Of a stretch of DNA of 64,000 nt, positions 8,842 through 29,009 are shown in pieces. The translations under genes and the position numbers were made by a program. Location: the IMG/VR virus record IMGVR_UViG_2850808358_000005; one strand, given 5' to 3'. Below the pieces are notes generated by a model. It did no database searches and was not told where the DNA came from. It saw only the letters and a list, made by a program, of their open reading frames with translations. Every line of letters begins with the position of its first letter. The stretch's first letter is position 1. The stretch comes from a virus (lineage: Duplodnaviria; Heunggongvirae; Uroviricota; Caudoviricetes).

Positions 8842-9624
8842 TTATGCTGCCCTTTTCATTGCGAATGGAACGCGAACAAACACGATCTCTTTATAGCAGC
8901 GGCAGTTTGGCAGCTCGCCCGCGTGGCCGGTCATGCCGTCCAAAGTTGGAGGTGAATCCCAGCGGACGAATTTACCTTTCATGTGATCGTGGGAATCTCG
9001 GACATCGCCATCATCGGCTGTACGCCAAATATAACCATCCGAGCCAATAGCTATCGCTCGGGCCATATCCAGCGCGCCCGTTGCTCTTCCCAGTTCCGTT
9101 CGGGCAATCAGATCGGCCCTAGACTTAGCAACATCGCCGGTAGATGCAATCTCTTTAGCAAACTGCTCCGCCCGACCACCGGTGACAACAGCCTCTATCG
9201 CTTTGTTCTGGATGTCGTACACCCTGTCTGCGGCCTCGAGAGGCAGAGATTTGATGTACTTGACCTGTTCGGCGATGATGGATTGCATCACCTGGCCCAC
9301 AGGAGCGCTTTCCACAAGATTGCGGAGCTCGCGACTGATGTTCTTGCTGTGTTGCCGCCAAACTTTCTCGTTCTGCCGGGTTAGGTCCGCAGTAAAGTTT
9401 TCCGCGACCTTTGTCGCCCAGGGGGTGATGATTTCACTGTAACGCTCCAGCGCCGCAATAATTTCCGTGATACTGTCATTTGAACCATCGTAGCGACCAT
9501 TTACGATGTCTCCGACCGCCCTCGCTATCCTGCGTAGGCTGGTTCGATACCGGATTTCCGCCTGACGGCTCCTGCGGTTCGTCATCAGGTTCGCCGATGC
9601 CGGGCGGCGCTTCATCTTCGGCAT
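8842..9624 (-). CDS. phage head morphogenesis protein (Mu F / SPP1 gp7 family)
   Basis: C-terminal ...GHAGELPNCRCY... motif typical of the family; located after portal. Confidence 0.6.
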   Translation of the reverse strand: MPKMKRRPASANLMTNRRSRQAEIRYRTSLRRIARAVGDIVNGRYDGSNDSITEIIAALERYSEIITPWATKVAENFTADLTRQNEKVWRQHSKNISRELRNLVESAPVGQVMQSIIAEQVKYIKSLPLEAADRVYDIQNKAIEAVVTGGRAEQFAKEIASTGDVAKSRADLIARTELGRATGALDMARAIAIGSDGYIWRTADDGDVRDSHDHMKGKFVRWDSPPTLDGMTGHAGELPNCRCYKEIVFVRVPFAMKRAA

Positions 9625-10942
9625 TCTCGATGTCCTCGTCGGTAATGGATGCCCCGATGCCGGTTACGTCAGAATTTTCTCGCAAATCAGTCATAGCGGC
9701 TTTCAGTGTCATCAGACCATCACCCAGCGCCGTACTGATTGCGTTGGTGGTGTTTAACGCCACCGTTGAGCGATCGACATCAGACATTTGCCAGAGCGGG
9801 TTAAACTCAAACGTGAAATCGTCCGGCAGCGGCTTGCCAAGTTCCGAACGATGCATGATGTCCAGTATCCGCCGCACCGGAAGACGTAAACGCCTCTCCT
9901 GCAACGAACTGATGCGATCGTAATAGTTGGCAAGGTCTGCATCACCGGTAGAAAATCCTTTCGGGGACTGTCCGAACAACCGCACCAGTGGGATACCAAC
10001 AGCGCCACTAATCTGTTCTGCAAACTGCGAAAGGATGTCATCCAGACCACTGAAGCTGTACTGATGGGTTTCAAACTTATCCCGCGAGTCCATGAGCGTC
10101 ATGCCTTCATTACTCTGGAACTGTCGAATCAGGTCGATATTCTTCAGCAACGCTTCATACGCAGGACCACCAAGTGCGATAAGCTCGCGTAGCTTCTCCA
10201 CGCTGTAGGTACGCAAATGCGCCTTGTAGACCAGCTGCGCCGCGCCGACAGTAGCGCTGTCGAACGCGGTAAGACGATCCCAGATACGCTCTACAACCGA
10301 CATTCCCCATTCGTTCTCGGTCATCTTCTGCTGAAATGGCAACGTGACGCCATCAAAGCGAATCAGGCGACTGTGATGAATGCGCCAAGCAGGAATTCCC
10401 GTTGCTGTGGTCACCACATCGTAAAACTCAGGTTTACCCAGGTCCGGCCCCATATCTTTAATGCGGCGGGTCAGTGCCGGGTCGACCATCCAGCGGTCGA
10501 GCGGGAGAATCCCCTTAAACTTGCCCTTACCGATGGTTTCGGGTCGCAGCGGGGTCATTGGTGCCTGCCCCTCAATCATGATGAAACCCACCGCGCCGCC
10601 GTAGAGGCGCGACCATTTCAGCACGTCATTCAGCGCATCCCAGATTTGCAACTCATCCAGTTGTGATTCGAGAATGCCACGATCTTTTGCATCAATTTCC
10701 GAAGTGATGCGAATGCCTTTGCGGGTCATATCATCCGGGATAGCATCGACTGCTTCGCCGATGATCCAGGATGAACGATAGGACCATTCCACCAGCATGC
10801 GGTTACGACTGGTGAAATTAGCCCGGTAGGTGGATGCTGAGTGCTGGTTAGGTGTCTGCATCCCTACGCGGGCAATAAAATTCTCATAACCATCAGCTGT
10901 GGCCTGCACAGTTCGCCGCAGGGCTTGTTTGTTTCGTGCCAT
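9476..10942 (-). CDS. phage portal protein (DUF1073-type)
   Basis: 488-aa ORF directly downstream of terminase large subunit; acidic C-terminal tail. Confidence 0.6.
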   Translation of the reverse strand: MARNKQALRRTVQATADGYENFIARVGMQTPNQHSASTYRANFTSRNRMLVEWSYRSSWIIGEAVDAIPDDMTRKGIRITSEIDAKDRGILESQLDELQIWDALNDVLKWSRLYGGAVGFIMIEGQAPMTPLRPETIGKGKFKGILPLDRWMVDPALTRRIKDMGPDLGKPEFYDVVTTATGIPAWRIHHSRLIRFDGVTLPFQQKMTENEWGMSVVERIWDRLTAFDSATVGAAQLVYKAHLRTYSVEKLRELIALGGPAYEALLKNIDLIRQFQSNEGMTLMDSRDKFETHQYSFSGLDDILSQFAEQISGAVGIPLVRLFGQSPKGFSTGDADLANYYDRISSLQERRLRLPVRRILDIMHRSELGKPLPDDFTFEFNPLWQMSDVDRSTVALNTTNAISTALGDGLMTLKAAMTDLRENSDVTGIGASITDEDIENAEDEAPPGIGEPDDEPQEPSGGNPVSNQPTQDSEGGRRHRKWSLRWFK

Positions 10943-12285
10943 CAGGCCTGTCTCCCCAGCTGTTCCCAGATATCCAGCGATGTATCGATTGGCGCGAAGG
11001 CCATAATGAATGCATCAGCAACGTTTGGTGACGGTATCTCGCGTTTTGCGAGGTCTTTTTTACTTTCGACCATCACACGTCCGTTACGGTCGAAATCACG
11101 ATGAGGTGTTGTCAGTTCCAGTTTCAGCTTTTCAAGCAACGGACAACGAGAATCTATGCTGATCAGCTCATCCACAGGATACTGTTCTCCGTTGTTAATG
11201 GCGTTAAACGTATTTCTGAAACGGTCAGCCACCAGCCACCATGCCTGAGCCTTAAGATTTGCGAAAAAGTCTTTGTTGGGGATGCCGTTGTACTCGTCAT
11301 CTGGCTCATGCACACCAGCACCGGCGTTAAACCTCTGGTAATTCACACGTCGCGCGTATGCGTTCTCGCTCTTCCGGTCAGCGTTAATTTCAGAGAATTT
11401 AGCACCGGCAGACGCACCAACACCGATAGAGTCGTAAACAATATCTGCTTCACGCTCCAGCGCCGCCTGATAAGTACGCTGGCAGCTCTTCAGTAATTCA
11501 TCTTCTTTGGCCTTCCATTCGTCGGCCCAGAAAACAACGGATCCGTGACGGTAAACGTTAGCGCACTTATCTGTACCACTGTCAGCCACGTCAAAGCCAA
11601 TACGCTTTCTTCCACTGGGTTCGAAATTTAACGTTTTGTGCGCATCCACTGCGGCTTCTATCCAGGACAGTTTGATGATTGCCGCATCATCATCAGACTC
11701 CGGAACGCCCTCATACACATGTTTAAAACCATCCGGATCACGGCGTCGCGCCGCGTCGATAACCTTAAGCATGGTGTCAGACAGAAACGGATTTTCGTCA
11801 TAGTTAATTTTGCGGATGAGAGTGCCTTCGGGCGGATCAACAACGAAGTTGCGCCAGACGAAATCAGTAACAAGTCCGGGGTTGAATATGAACCAGCATT
11901 CCGAACCCTCTTTACGGATCGTTGGCTCCAGAATTTTCCACTGGTATTCCGTCAGTGCGTGGGCTTCTTCCAGCCACAACACATCGATCCCCTCCAGTGA
12001 CTTAATTTCTTCGATGTTGCGCCATAATCCATAAAAAACAAATTCCGAGCCAGTAACCCGGTTTATGATTTTGTTGTTCAGAATACGGAAACGGTGCCGC
12101 AGACCAAACCTGTCTATCTGAATTTTGAGCAGGGTATACACCGACTCTTCGATTTTATTCTGGATCTGACGGGCACAACAAAAACGCAGGGTGTATTTAT
12201 TCGACAGAAATATGGCAATGCCAGCGGCATCCCATGATTTTGACGATGACCGACCACCATAAAGCACTTTGTTACGTGCCCGCAT
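10942..12285 (-). CDS. terminase large subunit
   Basis: N-terminal P-loop (KVLYGGRSSSKSWD); start placed at Met of MRARNKVLYGG, 11 nt after the small-subunit stop (track ORF extends to 12453). Confidence 0.65.
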   Translation of the reverse strand: MRARNKVLYGGRSSSKSWDAAGIAIFLSNKYTLRFCCARQIQNKIEESVYTLLKIQIDRFGLRHRFRILNNKIINRVTGSEFVFYGLWRNIEEIKSLEGIDVLWLEEAHALTEYQWKILEPTIRKEGSECWFIFNPGLVTDFVWRNFVVDPPEGTLIRKINYDENPFLSDTMLKVIDAARRRDPDGFKHVYEGVPESDDDAAIIKLSWIEAAVDAHKTLNFEPSGRKRIGFDVADSGTDKCANVYRHGSVVFWADEWKAKEDELLKSCQRTYQAALEREADIVYDSIGVGASAGAKFSEINADRKSENAYARRVNYQRFNAGAGVHEPDDEYNGIPNKDFFANLKAQAWWLVADRFRNTFNAINNGEQYPVDELISIDSRCPLLEKLKLELTTPHRDFDRNGRVMVESKKDLAKREIPSPNVADAFIMAFAPIDTSLDIWEQLGRQA

Positions 12286-12295
12286 AGTCCAGAAA

Positions 12296-13060
12296 CTACG
12301 TAAAGCCGGATTCAGCGTCGGTTTGGATGTCAGAGTAGAAGTCATTGAGGTCACGCTCTCCATTGCCATCATCAATACCTGCATCACGGCGAAGACGATC
12401 AGCCTCCAGAGACACCTTATCAGTGGCGGCCTTGCGGTAGGCTGTATCAGCAAATATTTTTCCTACCGTCGCAAGCGTGCCAACGATGGACTCAATACGA
12501 ACTGTATTGCGCATCATTGCTTTCTCGGCGGCGCTGATATTTTCAATCAGCATCTTCCTTTCCTGGTCCCCATTAGCATCTTCCAGCGACACCAACCACC
12601 GGCCAATATTCTCTGCAGCGACAAGGTTGTTAGCACGAAGGCGAAATAATTCGTCCTCGAGCGTCAACGCTTTAGCGTCCTCTATCACCTCATCTTTGAG
12701 CAGAAGGCGACGGGCATAACCACCGTGTTTTAATGCCTGCTGGTTACCGGGTTGGAATGGGTTAGTCGGGGGATCGGTACGCATTCCGCGTATCGGTTTC
12801 GTATCCGGTGTAGATTCTGTTTTTAGTTGCGTACTTTTTTGTGTAAGGCCAGTAATGGCAGGCTTTCTGCTGGTACGCACTTTCCTTTTTTGCGTACCAT
12901 TTTTGCAAACCTGCGTACCGCCACTGCGTGCCCAACCAAGCTTTTTGGCCCTCTTCCTGATAGCCCCTTCTGTAACGCCGTATTTCTCGCCTATATCACG
13001 GAGGCTAAGGACTCCGGCCCGGTATGCCGATTCGATGGCCTCCCAGTCCGGTTTTGCCAT
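12296..13060 (-). CDS. terminase small subunit (putative, N-terminal HTH)
   Basis: 254-aa ORF immediately upstream of the large subunit; HTH-like N-terminus. Confidence 0.5.
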   Translation of the reverse strand: MAKPDWEAIESAYRAGVLSLRDIGEKYGVTEGAIRKRAKKLGWARSGGTQVCKNGTQKRKVRTSRKPAITGLTQKSTQLKTESTPDTKPIRGMRTDPPTNPFQPGNQQALKHGGYARRLLLKDEVIEDAKALTLEDELFRLRANNLVAAENIGRWLVSLEDANGDQERKMLIENISAAEKAMMRNTVRIESIVGTLATVGKIFADTAYRKAATDKVSLEADRLRRDAGIDDGNGERDLNDFYSDIQTDAESGFT

Positions 13061-13253: not shown

Positions 13254-13766
13254 TTGATGGAGTGGATAAATGCTTTGATGAACTATTTTGTACTTCATCC
13301 ATATCGCCTATGGGGGCTTCTTTTTATAATAGCGTTCACAAAATCCACTTTACTCATTTCGGCGATATTGCCACCAGCATCAATTATGATGGCCACTGTA
13401 ATTACAGTCAGCAAGACGACTCTTTCACCATGGGAAGCTGGAATCACGGTCATGAGTGGCGCATGGTGCGGTACTATCGTTAATTACCATCTTGGTATAA
13501 TAATTGGGCATATCCCTCAACTTGCATGTATAATATCGAGCCGTTCCAATACAATAGAACGGGTTCGCCTTCAGTTGCAAAATAACTCTGTGTCAATACT
13601 TTTCACTTCGCGCTTTATCGCCGTGCTGCGTTATATTGCTCCTTTGGTGGCAGGAATGTTGCAACTTCATCCAGTGAAAGTGTATACAGTGAGTCTGATT
13701 TCAGCTGCTAGCTGGTCAGCACTTTATGTTGGTAGTTTTAGCTTCGTGTTGCCTTTTTTTAGCTAA
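13254..13766 (+). CDS. DedA/VTT-family membrane protein (moron)
   Basis: 170-aa multi-TM protein with a SRFIAVLRYIAPLVAGM motif resembling DedA proteins; AT-rich, opposite strand to the flanking phage operons. Confidence 0.45.
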   Translation: MMEWINALMNYFVLHPYRLWGLLFIIAFTKSTLLISAILPPASIMMATVITVSKTTLSPWEAGITVMSGAWCGTIVNYHLGIIIGHIPQLACIISSRSNTIERVRLQLQNNSVSILFTSRFIAVLRYIAPLVAGMLQLHPVKVYTVSLISAASWSALYVGSFSFVLPFFS

Positions 13767-23442: not shown

Positions 23443-23661
23443 ATGCAGAAACGTGACCCCGTCATCATCGCGCCAGACTATACCGATGATGAACTTTATG
23501 AGTGGATGCACCAGAAAATTCAGGCTGCGCAGGACCTGAAGTGGGCCAATGAAGCCCGGGCTAAGGAGGCCGAAAATCTGTCCGCTCAGGAGCAGGATAT
23601 CACCAGGCTGGAAAAAGCAGCGGCATTAAGCATTGCCAGAATGATTACATACCAGCGTTAA
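23443..23661 (+). CDS. hypothetical small protein
   Basis: 72-aa ORF with coiled-coil-like C-terminus. Confidence 0.3.
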   Translation: MQKRDPVIIAPDYTDDELYEWMHQKIQAAQDLKWANEARAKEAENLSAQEQDITRLEKAAALSIARMITYQR

Positions 23662-23779
23662 TGGCTAACCAACGAAGCCAAGGTTGGTAATTAAGGAGTT
23701 CTCCACGGGTGAGGTGGAGTGCGTGCGCCGGACACGGGTGAGTATCCGGCATGTTCTTTAAAAATCTGAATACCTTGAC

Positions 23780-24250
23780 TCAAAAATCATTATTGAAATT
23801 GTAGTCCATGAGATACTCATTTTTACAGGAGGGACATTGAGTTTTCGTATATTTATCGCCTTCCTCGATAGGGAAAGGTTGCAATATAGATATTGCTCTC
23901 TTCGCAAAACATTCTGGACAAAAATACATGGTAATCTTGCCAGAGCTAGTATTGCACTGTCTGGCATACACAATCGTTCCAGTAATCAATTGGCGAGGTT
24001 CGCAGTCTTCACTTTGGAACTTAAACTTTTCTATCTCCGTGAGTTTTGCTTTGAGCGCAGCCTCATTGCTTTTAGAGATTGTCAGCTCATCAATGAGAGA
24101 CAAATATTCAAGCTGAATGCTTGACAACTTAGAGTTTATTTCAGACACAGCGCGATCAACCTCAGCCTGAGTTTTTGCTTCATTGAATAATTTTAACATT
24201 GATGCAGTCTCTTTGAGAGCTGACATCGCTAATGATAGATCAAACATCAC
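23780..24250 (-). CDS. hypothetical coiled-coil protein with C-terminal zinc-ribbon (CPEC...CPSC)
   Basis: 156-aa ORF in an AT-rich block on the strand opposite the early-left operon. Confidence 0.4.
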   Translation of the reverse strand: MMFDLSLAMSALKETASMLKLFNEAKTQAEVDRAVSEINSKLSSIQLEYLSLIDELTISKSNEAALKAKLTEIEKFKFQSEDCEPRQLITGTIVYARQCNTSSGKITMYFCPECFAKRAISILQPFPIEEGDKYTKTQCPSCKNEYLMDYNFNNDF

Positions 24251-25011
24251 TTGCTCACTCTTCTTATTGTTGGGGTATTCAGATTATACAAATTTCTTGT
24301 TGTTGGGGAATAACAGGAACCACCTCGCCTGACGTGGTTAAAAGCAGGCACACAACACGAAAGCGCACGGCGAGGTAGCTGGTCATAGATAGCCTGTCGT
24401 TAAATTTTCGCCGACCGTGCGCTTCCGGTTGTGGCAATCCGCGAAATGGCGCGGCGGTAAGTATGGCGGGGTTTCTCCGTTCCTCGCAAATGTCCACCGG
24501 GTTGTCAGGTTGACCATACGATTAAGTGACAACCCGCCACAACATCTCCAGATTGAGTTGTTGGCGATGAAACTTTTGGCGGCATCAGTTTTGCTCTGCC
24601 GCCCTTTTTAAAGTGAATTTTGTGATGCGGTGAATGCGGCTGAGCGCACGCGGAACAGTTAAAACAGTAAGGAAAATCCCTTATTCCGGCGTTAATTGTT
24701 AACTGGTTAACGTCACCTGGAGGCACCAGGCACCGCATCAACAAAATTTATTTAATTAATTATGCGCGAATTAACCGTTATTCGTGCAGGGGATTTCCAC
24801 ACCTGAAATCCGCCGCTCTTTAACAATATGAACCGGGCTGTCACGTAAACCACAATTCGGGGTGCCGCCGAATGCCCTGATATATCCGCAGAACCGGAAC
24901 GCAGGGTCGGGATGTGACTTTTTGAACAAACCAAACTGGCGGCTTCCGCCACTTGCGAGAAAACTAAATTCAGACTAAATTATAACTCCCAATGAAAAAA
25001 GGAACACCCAT

Positions 25012-25624: not shown

Positions 25625-25893
25625 CTTTCTGATATCCGGGATATTGACAAAGCAACCTGCATTGTTGCAAGATGATCGCACTAGAAACAGTTAAGCGGTC
25701 ATCCGCACCCGATAGCCTTGCGGCTTTTTTATGCCTGAAATACGGCACATCCGTACAAAGATCGGGTGGAGAGGCGTAATACAATACCCGTAAGGGGAAT
25801 ATGCCCGGAGCTTCTTAACTGGCTCTAGTTGACACCCGATCACCAGCTACTAACTGGTAATCGCAGACTAAAACAGTTAAGGAGGCCACTAAA

Positions 25894-27140: not shown

Positions 27141-29009
27141 ATGAGCACCGATAAACAAGTTTACCCACTGTATTACGAAGCAAAAAATGACAAAGTAAGA
27201 AAACGCCTCGGTATTAAAGGCGGTTTTTACTGGGCTGAAGCGAAAAAATTATCCATTGCCATCTCCCGTGGTGCTGTTGCGATTGACGATGCTGGCTACG
27301 ATGAAGATGACTTTAAAAAACCTGTTCGCGTCAATTTGCCCGTTGTTGATGACCTCCCACCAGAAGGCGTGTTTGATACGGAATTCTGCAACCGTTACGA
27401 AAAAGGCGGGGAAGATGGCATCACAATGGTATTTATCGCATCTTCTCCCTCTGTTCAGGACAAACCAGCCAGCACTGACAATACCAACGTCAACGGCGAA
27501 GACATGACAGAAATTGAGGAGAACATGCTCCTGCCAGTTTCCGGTCAGGAACTGCCCATTCGTTGGCTTGCGCAACACGGCAGCGAAAAACCGGTAACGC
27601 ACGTTTCACGCGACGAACTCCAGGCATTACACATTGCTCGGGATGAAGAACTACCGGCTGTTACTGCTCTGGCTGTTTCGCATAAAACCAGTCTGCTCGA
27701 CCCGCTGGAGATTCGCGACCTCCACAAACTCGTGCGTGATACTGACAAAGTTTTCCCTAATCCTGGCAATTCAAATCTGGGACTGATGACTGCTTTTTTC
27801 GAAGCATATCTGGATGCCAACTACACCGATCGCGGTCTGCTGACAAAAGAGTGGATGAAAGGAAATCGTGTTTCGCGTATCACTCGCACGGCTTCCGGTG
27901 CTAATGCTGGCGGCGGGAACCTCACCGATCGCGGCGAAGGTTTCGTTCACGATCTGACGTCACTGGCGCGCGACGTAGCCACTGGCGTACTGGCTCGTTC
28001 AATGGACGTGGACATTTATAACCTTCATCCGGCACACGCTAAACGTGTCGAGGAAATTATCGCTGAAAATAAACCGCCCTTTTCTGTTTTCCGCGACAAA
28101 TTCATCACCATGCCTGGCGGGATGGATTATTCCCGCGCCATCGTGGTTGCGTCAGTGAAAGAAGCACCGATTGGTATCGAGGTCATCCCCGCGCACGTCA
28201 CTGAATATCTGAACAAGGTACTGACTGAAACCGATCATGCCAACCCTGATCCGGAAATCGTGGATATTGCCTGCGGTCGCTCCTCTGCCCCGATGCCGCA
28301 ACGTGTAACAGAAGAAGGAAAACAGGATGCAACTGAACATCATCAGGACACGCAGCCGCTGGATGCTCAGTCACAGGTAAATGCTGTTGATGCGAAATAT
28401 CAGAAACTGCGGACAGAACTCCATGAAGCCCGGAAAAACATTCCGCCCAAAAATCCTGTCGATGCAGACAAATTACTGGCTGCCTCTCGCGGAGAATTTG
28501 TTGAAGGGATTAGCGACCCGAATGATTCGAAATGGATTCCCGGTCATCATATCTCCTCAAATGAAGTCAAAAAAACGGAAAATGAAGTGCGACAGACTGA
28601 AGATAAACAGCACCAGAACAGCGAACCGGAGGAGGGAACACCCTGCAATCTGACTGGCGAGGATAACTGCCCTGACTGTGGCGCGGTGATGGGAGACGCA
28701 ACTTATCAGGAAACTTTTGACGAAAAAAAACCAGATGAAGCACAGGAAGAAGAGCCGAAGAAAACGGAAAAAGCTGATGATTTGTTACCGGAGAACGCTG
28801 GCAGCGATCAGCATAATGATAGCAATAATGAAACTGGCGAAGATGAACTCAACTGGAAAAGACAGGTGTTGATTGCGGCGGTTTACGGTTTATGTGCGAA
28901 TCCTGCGTGCATAGCCTATGCGCCTGCAATCCCTGACATCGCAATGATGATTGCCAACAAGCTTGAAAATTTTGGAGTGACCAGTGATGAGCGCTTACCC
29001 GATTTTTGA
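27141..29009 (+). CDS. RecE-like protein (resembles the N-terminal region of exodeoxyribonuclease VIII; C-terminal nuclease domain not evident)
   Basis: 622 aa; Rac-like context; acidic low-complexity tail with a [10 protein letters not shown] motif; family call from memory. Confidence 0.4.

Follow-up and report, generated by a model that had tools for sequence, protein, structure and literature searches.

Rip1 (ring interacting pore 1) is an experimentally characterised, prophage-encoded single-protein defence of the abortive type, which senses small-terminase or portal rings and responds with a lethal membrane pore (PMC13434031). Here we compare it with a gene in a 64,000-nucleotide stretch of DNA (the window) from the virus record IMGVR_UViG_2850808358_000005 (Caudoviricetes). 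This gene, an open reading frame (ORF) on the minus strand at 23780 to 24250, had been singled out in an earlier note, made from the sequence alone, as a candidate exclusion or defence gene carried as a moron and belonging to no recognised family. We conclude, with a probability of about 0.78, that it is a diverged member of the Rip1 family and an antisense moron transcribed independently in the early-left region.

The mechanism of Rip1, as used here, is taken from section 5 of the review cited above, which summarises Patel, McCarthy, Taylor et al. 2026 (Nature 651:1060). Rip1 alone is non-toxic. Its N-terminal part is an amphipathic helix and its C-terminal half touches the small terminase; twelve subunits ring an 11-mer small-terminase ring, and together they make up a pore, which renders liposomes and cells permeable and leads to premature lysis. 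Escape mutants are found in the portal for phages of Pseudomonas and, for those of Escherichia coli, in the small terminase. Homologues are widespread in Proteobacteria, where they occur mainly in prophages (all PMC13434031), and a further paper lists Rip1 as a small terminase subunit sensor (PMC13601566).

Sequence similarity to Rip1

General profile libraries said little about the window protein. Scans against Pfam and NCBIfam returned nothing significant, with noise-level matches to zinc ribbons at most, and PADLOC-DB v2.0.0 (2023), a library older than the description of Rip1, yielded no family at E-values up to 1. Among the PHROGs, the protein falls into phrog_1244, annotated as ‘unknown function’, with an E-value of 1.7e-35. 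A word-indexed homologue search found a single close relative, a Salmonella protein with 88% identity, and its repetition with alignment brought up nine proteins only. An exhaustive HMMER search of 1.84 billion cluster representatives recovered 257 relatives at E-values up to 1e-3, all of them about 145-175 residues long and matched over their full length. In a 60-sequence alignment of the family, the only invariant columns are the cysteines C110, C113, C138 and C141, while Y82, G90, Y94, S120 and L122 are nearly invariant.

The remote-homology search that the earlier note had proposed gave a clear answer. Compared to all PDB sequences, the family profile had one strong match, which covers the full length and reaches an E-value of 6.1e-37: chain L of 9oox, a protein of 164 residues named ‘ring interacting pore 1 (Rip1)’. 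The window protein alone retrieves the same chain with phmmer (E 1.3e-7, residues 10-147). This chain and gp37 of coliphage HK446 (YP_007111990.1) are 100% identical, and the window protein shares 24% identity with gp37 over 143 residues in BLASTP, interrupted by one 1-residue gap (E 7e-11). Both CxxC pairs are also present in HK446 Rip1. Besides HK446 Rip1, phrog_1244 takes in orf25 of Pseudomonas phage D3112, HkaP of HK620 and the allele that E. coli O103:H2 12009 carries in the same genomic slot. The statement that no family could be recognised is thus superseded by an assignment to Rip1 / phrog_1244, a family described in 2026, and the homology found is to a defence protein, not to a structural or regulatory phage protein.

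Predicted structure

An AlphaFold2 model built with the family alignment has a mean predicted local distance difference test (pLDDT) score of 91.4. It consists of two helices (residues 2-23 and 27-79, pLDDT 74-98), followed by a β-rich domain (83-149, pLDDT above 94) that carries both CxxC pairs and aligns to residues 95-157 of HK446 Rip1. The N-terminal part had been called a coiled coil, which is roughly right, but helical hairpin describes it better. The C-terminal CPEC...CPSC arrangement had been read correctly, its cysteines being the four invariant residues of the family, and the site they form is a putative zinc ribbon. The features of the gene, all on the minus strand, are:

23780..24250, minus strand: Rip1-family ORF, recognised from the ORF list, WP_052327206.1, phrog_1244 and the sequence and Foldseek matches to 9oox
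24011..24244, minus strand: N-terminal helical hairpin (residues 2-79) in the AlphaFold2 model, presumably the pore-forming amphipathic part, a role taken from PMC13434031
23801..24001, minus strand: putative C-terminal zinc-ribbon domain (residues 83-149), supported by invariant cysteines and pLDDT, presumably the ring-sensing part
23909-23920, minus strand: C110/C113 (CPEC), invariant in 60 members
23825-23836, minus strand: C138/C141 (CPSC), invariant in 60 members

Structure prediction had also been suggested as a check, and it led to the same protein as the profile search. In a Foldseek search of the model against the PDB, the only significant matches were chains L and M of 9oox (E 3-5e-7, probability 1.00), the cryo-EM structure of Escherichia phage HK446 Rip1 with the small terminase of Enterobacteria phage T6; the next-best match had an E-value of 0.22. 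The fit, which compares a predicted model to an experimental structure, reaches a target-normalised template modelling (TM) score of up to 0.81 at a root-mean-square deviation of 2.9 Å.

No transmembrane segment was found in the window protein, the highest Kyte-Doolittle value over 19 residues being 0.72. When averaged over the family, hydrophobicity in the N-terminal 79 residues follows an α-helical periodicity that was reached by only 2 of 2000 shuffles; this family-level test replaced the hydrophobic moment of the single sequence, which was not significant.

Three lines of evidence thus agree in supporting homology to Rip1, namely sequence similarity, a PHROG shared with HK446 Rip1 and the predicted fold, and on this basis we consider membership of the window protein in the Rip1 family well supported. 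The homology in turn supports the proposal that the gene serves defence or exclusion.

The gene and its surroundings

The ORF is a real and intact prophage gene. In the ORF list it extends over 156 codons from a GTG at 24250 to a stop codon at 23780-23782; an alternative start, the ATG at 24247, gives a protein of 155 residues. E. coli VL40 is 100% identical to the window across 23600-24500, and there RefSeq annotates the same ORF from the ATG, as the 155-residue hypothetical protein WP_052327206.1. In the alignment of alleles described below, GTG is the start codon that is conserved. The ORF list and the annotated VL40 locus confirm that the gene lies opposite the early-left operon, as had been noted.

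The gene is hosted by a lambdoid E. coli prophage of the Qin/Rac-like kind. Genes for a Cro-like protein and for a DicA-like repressor, in divergent orientation, occupy 22.2-23.0 kb and are followed on the plus strand by ydfA, ydfB and ydfC, which form the early-left operon to which the ORF is antisense. To the right of the ORF lie genes for Phd/YefM, RelE/ParE and Rha, all on the plus strand, so that the gene indeed sits between the repressor-side small genes and the toxin-antitoxin/Rha block. The lower guanine-plus-cytosine (GC) content attributed to it was borne out as well: the ORF has 38.4%, compared to 46.5% in the left flank, 47.4% in the right flank and 48.8% in the whole window.

Farther along, a RecE/exonuclease VIII-like ORF (27141-29009, plus strand) is followed by an IS3-family transposase gene (rve, HTH_Tnp_1; 29736-30893, minus strand), suggesting a disruption in the prophage's left arm. 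The annotation of the VL40 relative gives both Rha and RecE as partial genes.

The prophage also encodes a portal protein (9476-10942), a large terminase (10942-12453) and a small terminase (12296-13060, minus strand; phrog_370, E 7.5e-95). Adjacent to the small terminase gene, on the opposite strand, is an ORF for a 170-residue membrane protein of VTT/DedA type (13254-13766, plus strand), possibly a further moron on the opposite strand, where the late region begins.

A moron cassette and its alleles

The occupancy of the slot in related prophages, a comparison that the earlier note had recommended, was determined by using a conserved 23-mer after ydfC as an anchor, which gave 101 usable prophage loci from IMG/VR. 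In 89 of these the slot is empty and the flanks are joined by about 29-45 nucleotides (nt); in the remaining 12 it is filled by a cassette of roughly 570 bp, corresponding to about 23753-24325 of the window. All 12 filled slots contain an ORF of the phrog_1244 type, and in all 12 it is antisense.

23443-23661, plus strand: ydfC, the gene on the left side of the ORF
23753..24325, no strand assigned: moron cassette, with junctions read from the alignment of the 101 loci and a GC content of 37.9%

The coexistence of filled and empty slots, together with the low GC content, directly identifies the ORF as a moron, inserted as a self-contained AT-rich segment, as had been surmised from its position and composition.

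The filled slots contain three types of allele. Between the window type and the O103 type, identity amounts to 49% in the N-terminal helices and to 37% in the C-terminal domain. The third type and the O103 type share 100% identity in the C-terminal domain but only 54% in the N-terminal helices (loci L013 and L019 compared to L042 and L052). This domain-level mosaicism among the slot alleles implies that the two functional halves of the gene have been recombined.

Among 5,426 complete E. coli genomes, we found the window allele in 4, relatives of the O103-type slot allele in 734, including O157:H7 and O103:H2, and the HK446 type in 145. Where annotation of the E. coli copies was listed, they are all hypothetical proteins or unannotated. 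The 88%-identical Salmonella homologue occupies an equivalent slot, antisense between repressor-side small genes and Rha, and both this homologue and the four E. coli copies are full length.

Direct repeats and presumed promoter

Upstream of the gene, the earlier note had described two imperfect direct repeats at 24262..24311. The repeats are real, with coordinates shifted by one base: the 16-nt form occupies 24263-24278 and 24296-24311, and extending it to 18 nt (24261-24278 and 24294-24311) gives 16 identical positions out of 18. No further copy of the motif TTCTTGTTGTTGGGG exists in the 64 kb when up to two mismatches are allowed (0.16 occurrences expected), and the motif is conserved in all three allele types despite the divergence of their ORFs. 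The two copies flank a perfect TATAAT.

24261..24278, plus strand: direct repeat copy 1 (TTCTTATTGTTGGGGTAT), overlapping the 5' untranslated region and the right arm of the long-range stem
24294..24311, plus strand: direct repeat copy 2 (TTCTTGTTGTTGGGGAAT), at the −35 position of the presumed promoter and identical in all filled alleles
24283..24288, minus strand: presumed −10 element TATAAT of an inferred promoter, read from the sequence and conserved in all filled alleles

The conservation of these elements across alleles backs the view that the repeats lie in the promoter region of the gene. Against it stands a poor −35 element, owing to whose weakness a consensus promoter scan called no promoter at the TATAAT site. 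The repeats are probably not simple promoter operators, since copy 1 serves as the 3' arm in a long-range, cassette-closing stem. In the minimum free energy (MFE) folds of both alleles folded, those of the window and O103 types, copy 2 is paired with the left flank (TCCGGCA).

A long-range stem closing the cassette

A repeat search showed that the ORF is bracketed by a perfect 12-nt inverted repeat (23763-23774 and 24274-24285). By our own estimate, about 0.04 such pairs are expected by chance in the 1.2-kb region searched.

23763..23779, plus strand: left arm of the cassette-closing inverted repeat, with a core at 23763-23774 that can be extended to 17 nt
24269..24285, plus strand: right arm of the cassette-closing inverted repeat, with a core at 24274-24285

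On the plus strand, G·U pairs extend the stem to about 17 bp, whereas the same positions mismatch on the minus strand. In the MFE folds of the window and O103-type alleles, the stem closes the whole cassette. The O103-type allele differs from the window in the sequence of both arms but keeps their pairing, with A-U changed to G-C in the core and an extension in which TCCCAAC pairs with GTTGGG(G)A; as this covariation comes from three allele types only, it is thin evidence. Since the right arm overlaps repeat copy 1, the direct repeats are at least in part the 3' strands of a long-range pairing.

Transcription of the gene is predicted to start near 24276, which places only about 3 nt of the right arm in the rip1-like mRNA. 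It is therefore more likely that the stem acts in the transcript of the opposite strand that reads through from ydfC towards a DicF-like RNA. Two other interpretations of the inverted repeat were considered. Terminal repeats of a mobile element are disfavoured, because the arms are set in from the cassette junctions by 10 and about 40 nt, and an inversion switch finds no support in the 12 filled loci, all of which have the ORF in the same orientation.

The cassette might also be a regulated module, in which the stem and the opposite-strand early-left transcript tie the gene to the state of the prophage; we regard this extension of the defence reading as tentative and rather unlikely. The stem could then serve as a site for RNase III or other processing in the RNA from ydfABC to dicF, or it could take part in a transcriptional or antisense shut-off of rip1 on induction. 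If true, this would provide the prophage with self-immunity without a dedicated anti-Rip1 protein, and would preserve the maturation of the DicF-like RNA.

Downstream of the cassette, three matches to Rfam families of small RNAs were observed on the plus strand. The first is a shortened DicF-like RNA at 24568-24604, which covers 37 nt, compared to 52 positions in the Rfam model, and, with 27.9 bits, does not reach the gathering score of 48; it retains the GGCGG...CCGCC hairpin followed by a T run. A match to STnc100, a small RNA family of Salmonella, at 24606-24775 also lies below its gathering score (38.9 bits, threshold 47) and coincides with a 25-nt inverted repeat (24608-24632 and 24731-24755). 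The third, a match to sRNA-Xcc1 at 25760-25849, exceeds its gathering score (67.4 bits, threshold 53, E 3e-11) and sits between the RelE/ParE toxin gene and the Rha ORF.

Related genes and systems

In the annotated phages in which we examined family members, these are always lone genes antisense to the surrounding operon, at the following locations:

HK620, HK630 and HK446: family gene between N and the cIII/ral side, the classical sieB position
PhiR29_2: family gene beside cI
RcWaterboi: family gene in a Mu-like early operon

Of the known systems, HK446 Rip1 (9oox) comes closest, followed by the Rip1 group of Pseudomonas. HK446 Rip1 belongs to phrog_1244 as the window protein does, is colinear with it over 143 residues and superimposes on its predicted fold with a TM-score of 0.81; the two proteins have both CxxC pairs and an SILQ motif in common and are of similar size (164 and 155 residues). 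Both genes are lone and antisense to the early-left operon, that of a lambdoid coliphage in the case of HK446. They differ in sequence, at 24% identity, in the loop between the CxxC pairs and in the family tyrosine at position 82, which is a cysteine in the window protein. They also differ in their slot, since the HK446 gene occupies the sieB position, from N to the ral/cIII side, whereas the window gene has ydfC on one side and the dicF-like region on the other, in a prophage of Qin/Rac type.

The Rip1 genes of Mu-like Pseudomonas aeruginosa prophages (the group of D3112 orf25, DMS3 and JBD30) belong to the same family and are likewise lone minus-strand morons. D3112 orf25, which matches phrog_1244 with an E-value of 5.6e-58 and the window protein in tblastn with 8e-5, sits in a slot between the terminase genes, the position where both Rip1 and Tab are reported (PMC13434031, PMC10884400). 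The members of this group have an identity of 19-24% to the window protein, and the escape mutations reported for them are in the portal (PMC13434031). We observed a Rip1-family gene in D3112, DMS3, JBD30 and MP38, and an unrelated tab/anti-tab pair in JBD26 (genes 30-31).

HkaP of HK620 and HK630 also resembles the window gene in being a member of phrog_1244 (E 7.9e-51) and antisense within the early-left operon, but has only 21-31% identity to its product. The depositors of the HK620 record annotated HkaP as a ‘putative superinfection exclusion protein’. The literature on hkaP yielded only a biosensor paper, in which insertions were placed into the neighbouring intergenic regions and HkaP was given no function.

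SieB of phages lambda and P22 is expressed from the prophage, from a gene antisense to pL, and its outcome is of the abortive type. Its genomic niche is of the same kind as that of the window gene, but there is no relationship in sequence or fold, and the window protein lacks transmembrane segments.

Since D3112 orf25 shares its slot with Tab (JBD26 gp31), we also considered a relationship to this protein and rejected it, as hhalign gave a probability of 0.1% for the family alignment against JBD26 gp31. Tab shares with the Rip1-family genes of Pseudomonas the minus-strand moron slot between terminase genes and, like Rip1, has a late virion-assembly component as its target (PMC10884400). It is, however, an unrelated protein of 83 residues that has a partner gene, anti-Tab, and blocks tail assembly instead of forming a pore. 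GiPD474, a defence gene of Gifsy-1, was considered because the closest homologue of the window protein is from Salmonella, and was rejected because its product is an ATPase-domain protein.

Proposed mechanism and alternative explanations

By homology to Rip1, we infer how the window allele would be expressed and triggered, and that it would oligomerise, form a pore and confer an antiphage phenotype. As a stand-alone prophage gene with the orientation and moron status described above, it should be expressible from the lysogen, given activity of the presumed promoter. The lysogen would then make the protein from the cassette's own promoter, and the protein would be harmless on its own. When a superinfecting phage reaches late gene expression and assembles an oligomeric ring, either of its small terminase or of its portal, the C-terminal zinc-ribbon domains would bind round this ring and thus template a Rip1 ring of roughly 12 subunits, the N-terminal amphipathic helices of which would form a pore in the inner membrane. 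The cell would lyse or die before progeny is assembled, and this abortive infection would protect the population. For the resident prophage to tolerate the gene on induction, two possibilities are that its own rings are not recognised and that the gene is silenced by convergent early-left transcription.

Several observations weigh against this reading, in addition to the uncalled promoter. The window protein has only 19-25% identity to Rip1 proteins that have been characterised, and the family tyrosine Y82, which is nearly invariant, is a cysteine in the window allele and in its Salmonella relative. For the window protein alone, the hydrophobic moment of the N-terminal part does not exceed that of shuffled sequences (344 of 1000). 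Finally, selection on the slot is not absolute, as two sister alleles have decayed: locus L022 (IMG/VR) has a window-type allele with a 10-nt deletion and a 1-nt insertion, and in E. coli O103:H2 12009 (L002, 4198-4660) a 1-nt deletion in the N-terminal part is the reason why RefSeq calls only a C-terminal fragment of 114 residues.

These sister frameshifts also bear on whether the gene is a decaying or non-functional remnant that has kept its frame but lost expression or activity. The rarity of the window allele in complete E. coli genomes, the damage to the nearby prophage arm, with its truncated RecE-like gene and IS3-family transposase, and the weak −35 would fit such a remnant. We nevertheless consider it improbable, as the reading frame is unbroken, every invariant residue of the family and nearly all of the near-invariant ones are retained, the AlphaFold2 model is very confident, full length is kept in the four E. 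coli copies and in the 88%-identical Salmonella homologue, and the −10 element and upstream repeats are conserved across alleles. An equally low probability attaches to a protein of Rip1 fold that serves the prophage's own cycle, where the resident small terminase or portal would trigger the pore in order to tune lysis or to kill failed inductions. Potential triggers are present in cis, in the form of the small terminase, large terminase and portal of the prophage, and no anti-Rip1 partner gene is visible in the cassette. The characterised Rip1, however, acts on superinfecting phages, with escape mutations in the portal or small terminase of the invader (PMC13434031), and 89 of 101 prophages that are otherwise similar lack the gene, which is hence not needed for the lytic cycle. 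The antisense orientation relative to the early operon is moreover in keeping with a gene expressed in the lysogen and not in lytic growth.

A Cys4 zinc ribbon together with long helices, the vicinity of repressor-side genes and the conserved direct repeats upstream would also be compatible with a nucleic-acid-binding regulator of the immunity region, acting on transcription or binding RNA and using its helices as a dimerisation coiled coil. This is very unlikely, because no DNA- or RNA-binding family of Pfam or NCBIfam was matched above noise, Rip1 is the sole significant structural neighbour, and relatives also occur in slots unrelated to regulation, such as that between the terminase genes of Mu-like Pseudomonas phages. 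The position antisense within the early-left operon, like that of sieB in lambda and P22, and the label given to hkaP in the HK620 record might finally suggest a superinfection exclusion protein of the SieB type. The HK620 label rests on position only, and the solved structure 9oox now ties the family to Rip1. As Pfam SieB is not matched at E-values up to 1 and the hydrophobicity profile shows no transmembrane segment, the lack of homology effectively refutes membership in SieB and leaves this explanation hardly any probability. We retain a diverged Rip1-family defence gene as the best explanation of the locus.

Implications

Judged by its homology, the window allele appears to be a new, rare and diverged member of the known Rip1 defence family. 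This provides a likely function for a gene that RefSeq labels ‘hypothetical protein’ in each E. coli record inspected, and phrog_1244 can now carry a functional label in annotation pipelines. The region from ydfC to the dicF-like RNA is a second well-defined slot for Rip1-family morons in lambdoid prophages, with clean filled and empty states. As part of the tentative and rather unlikely extension given above, the mosaic alleles and the diverged sensor of the window allele, with its change of Tyr82 to Cys, may define new trigger specificities. The allele series, comprising the rare diverged window allele, the O103 type and the mosaic type, offers material for mapping trigger specificity as opposed to pore formation.

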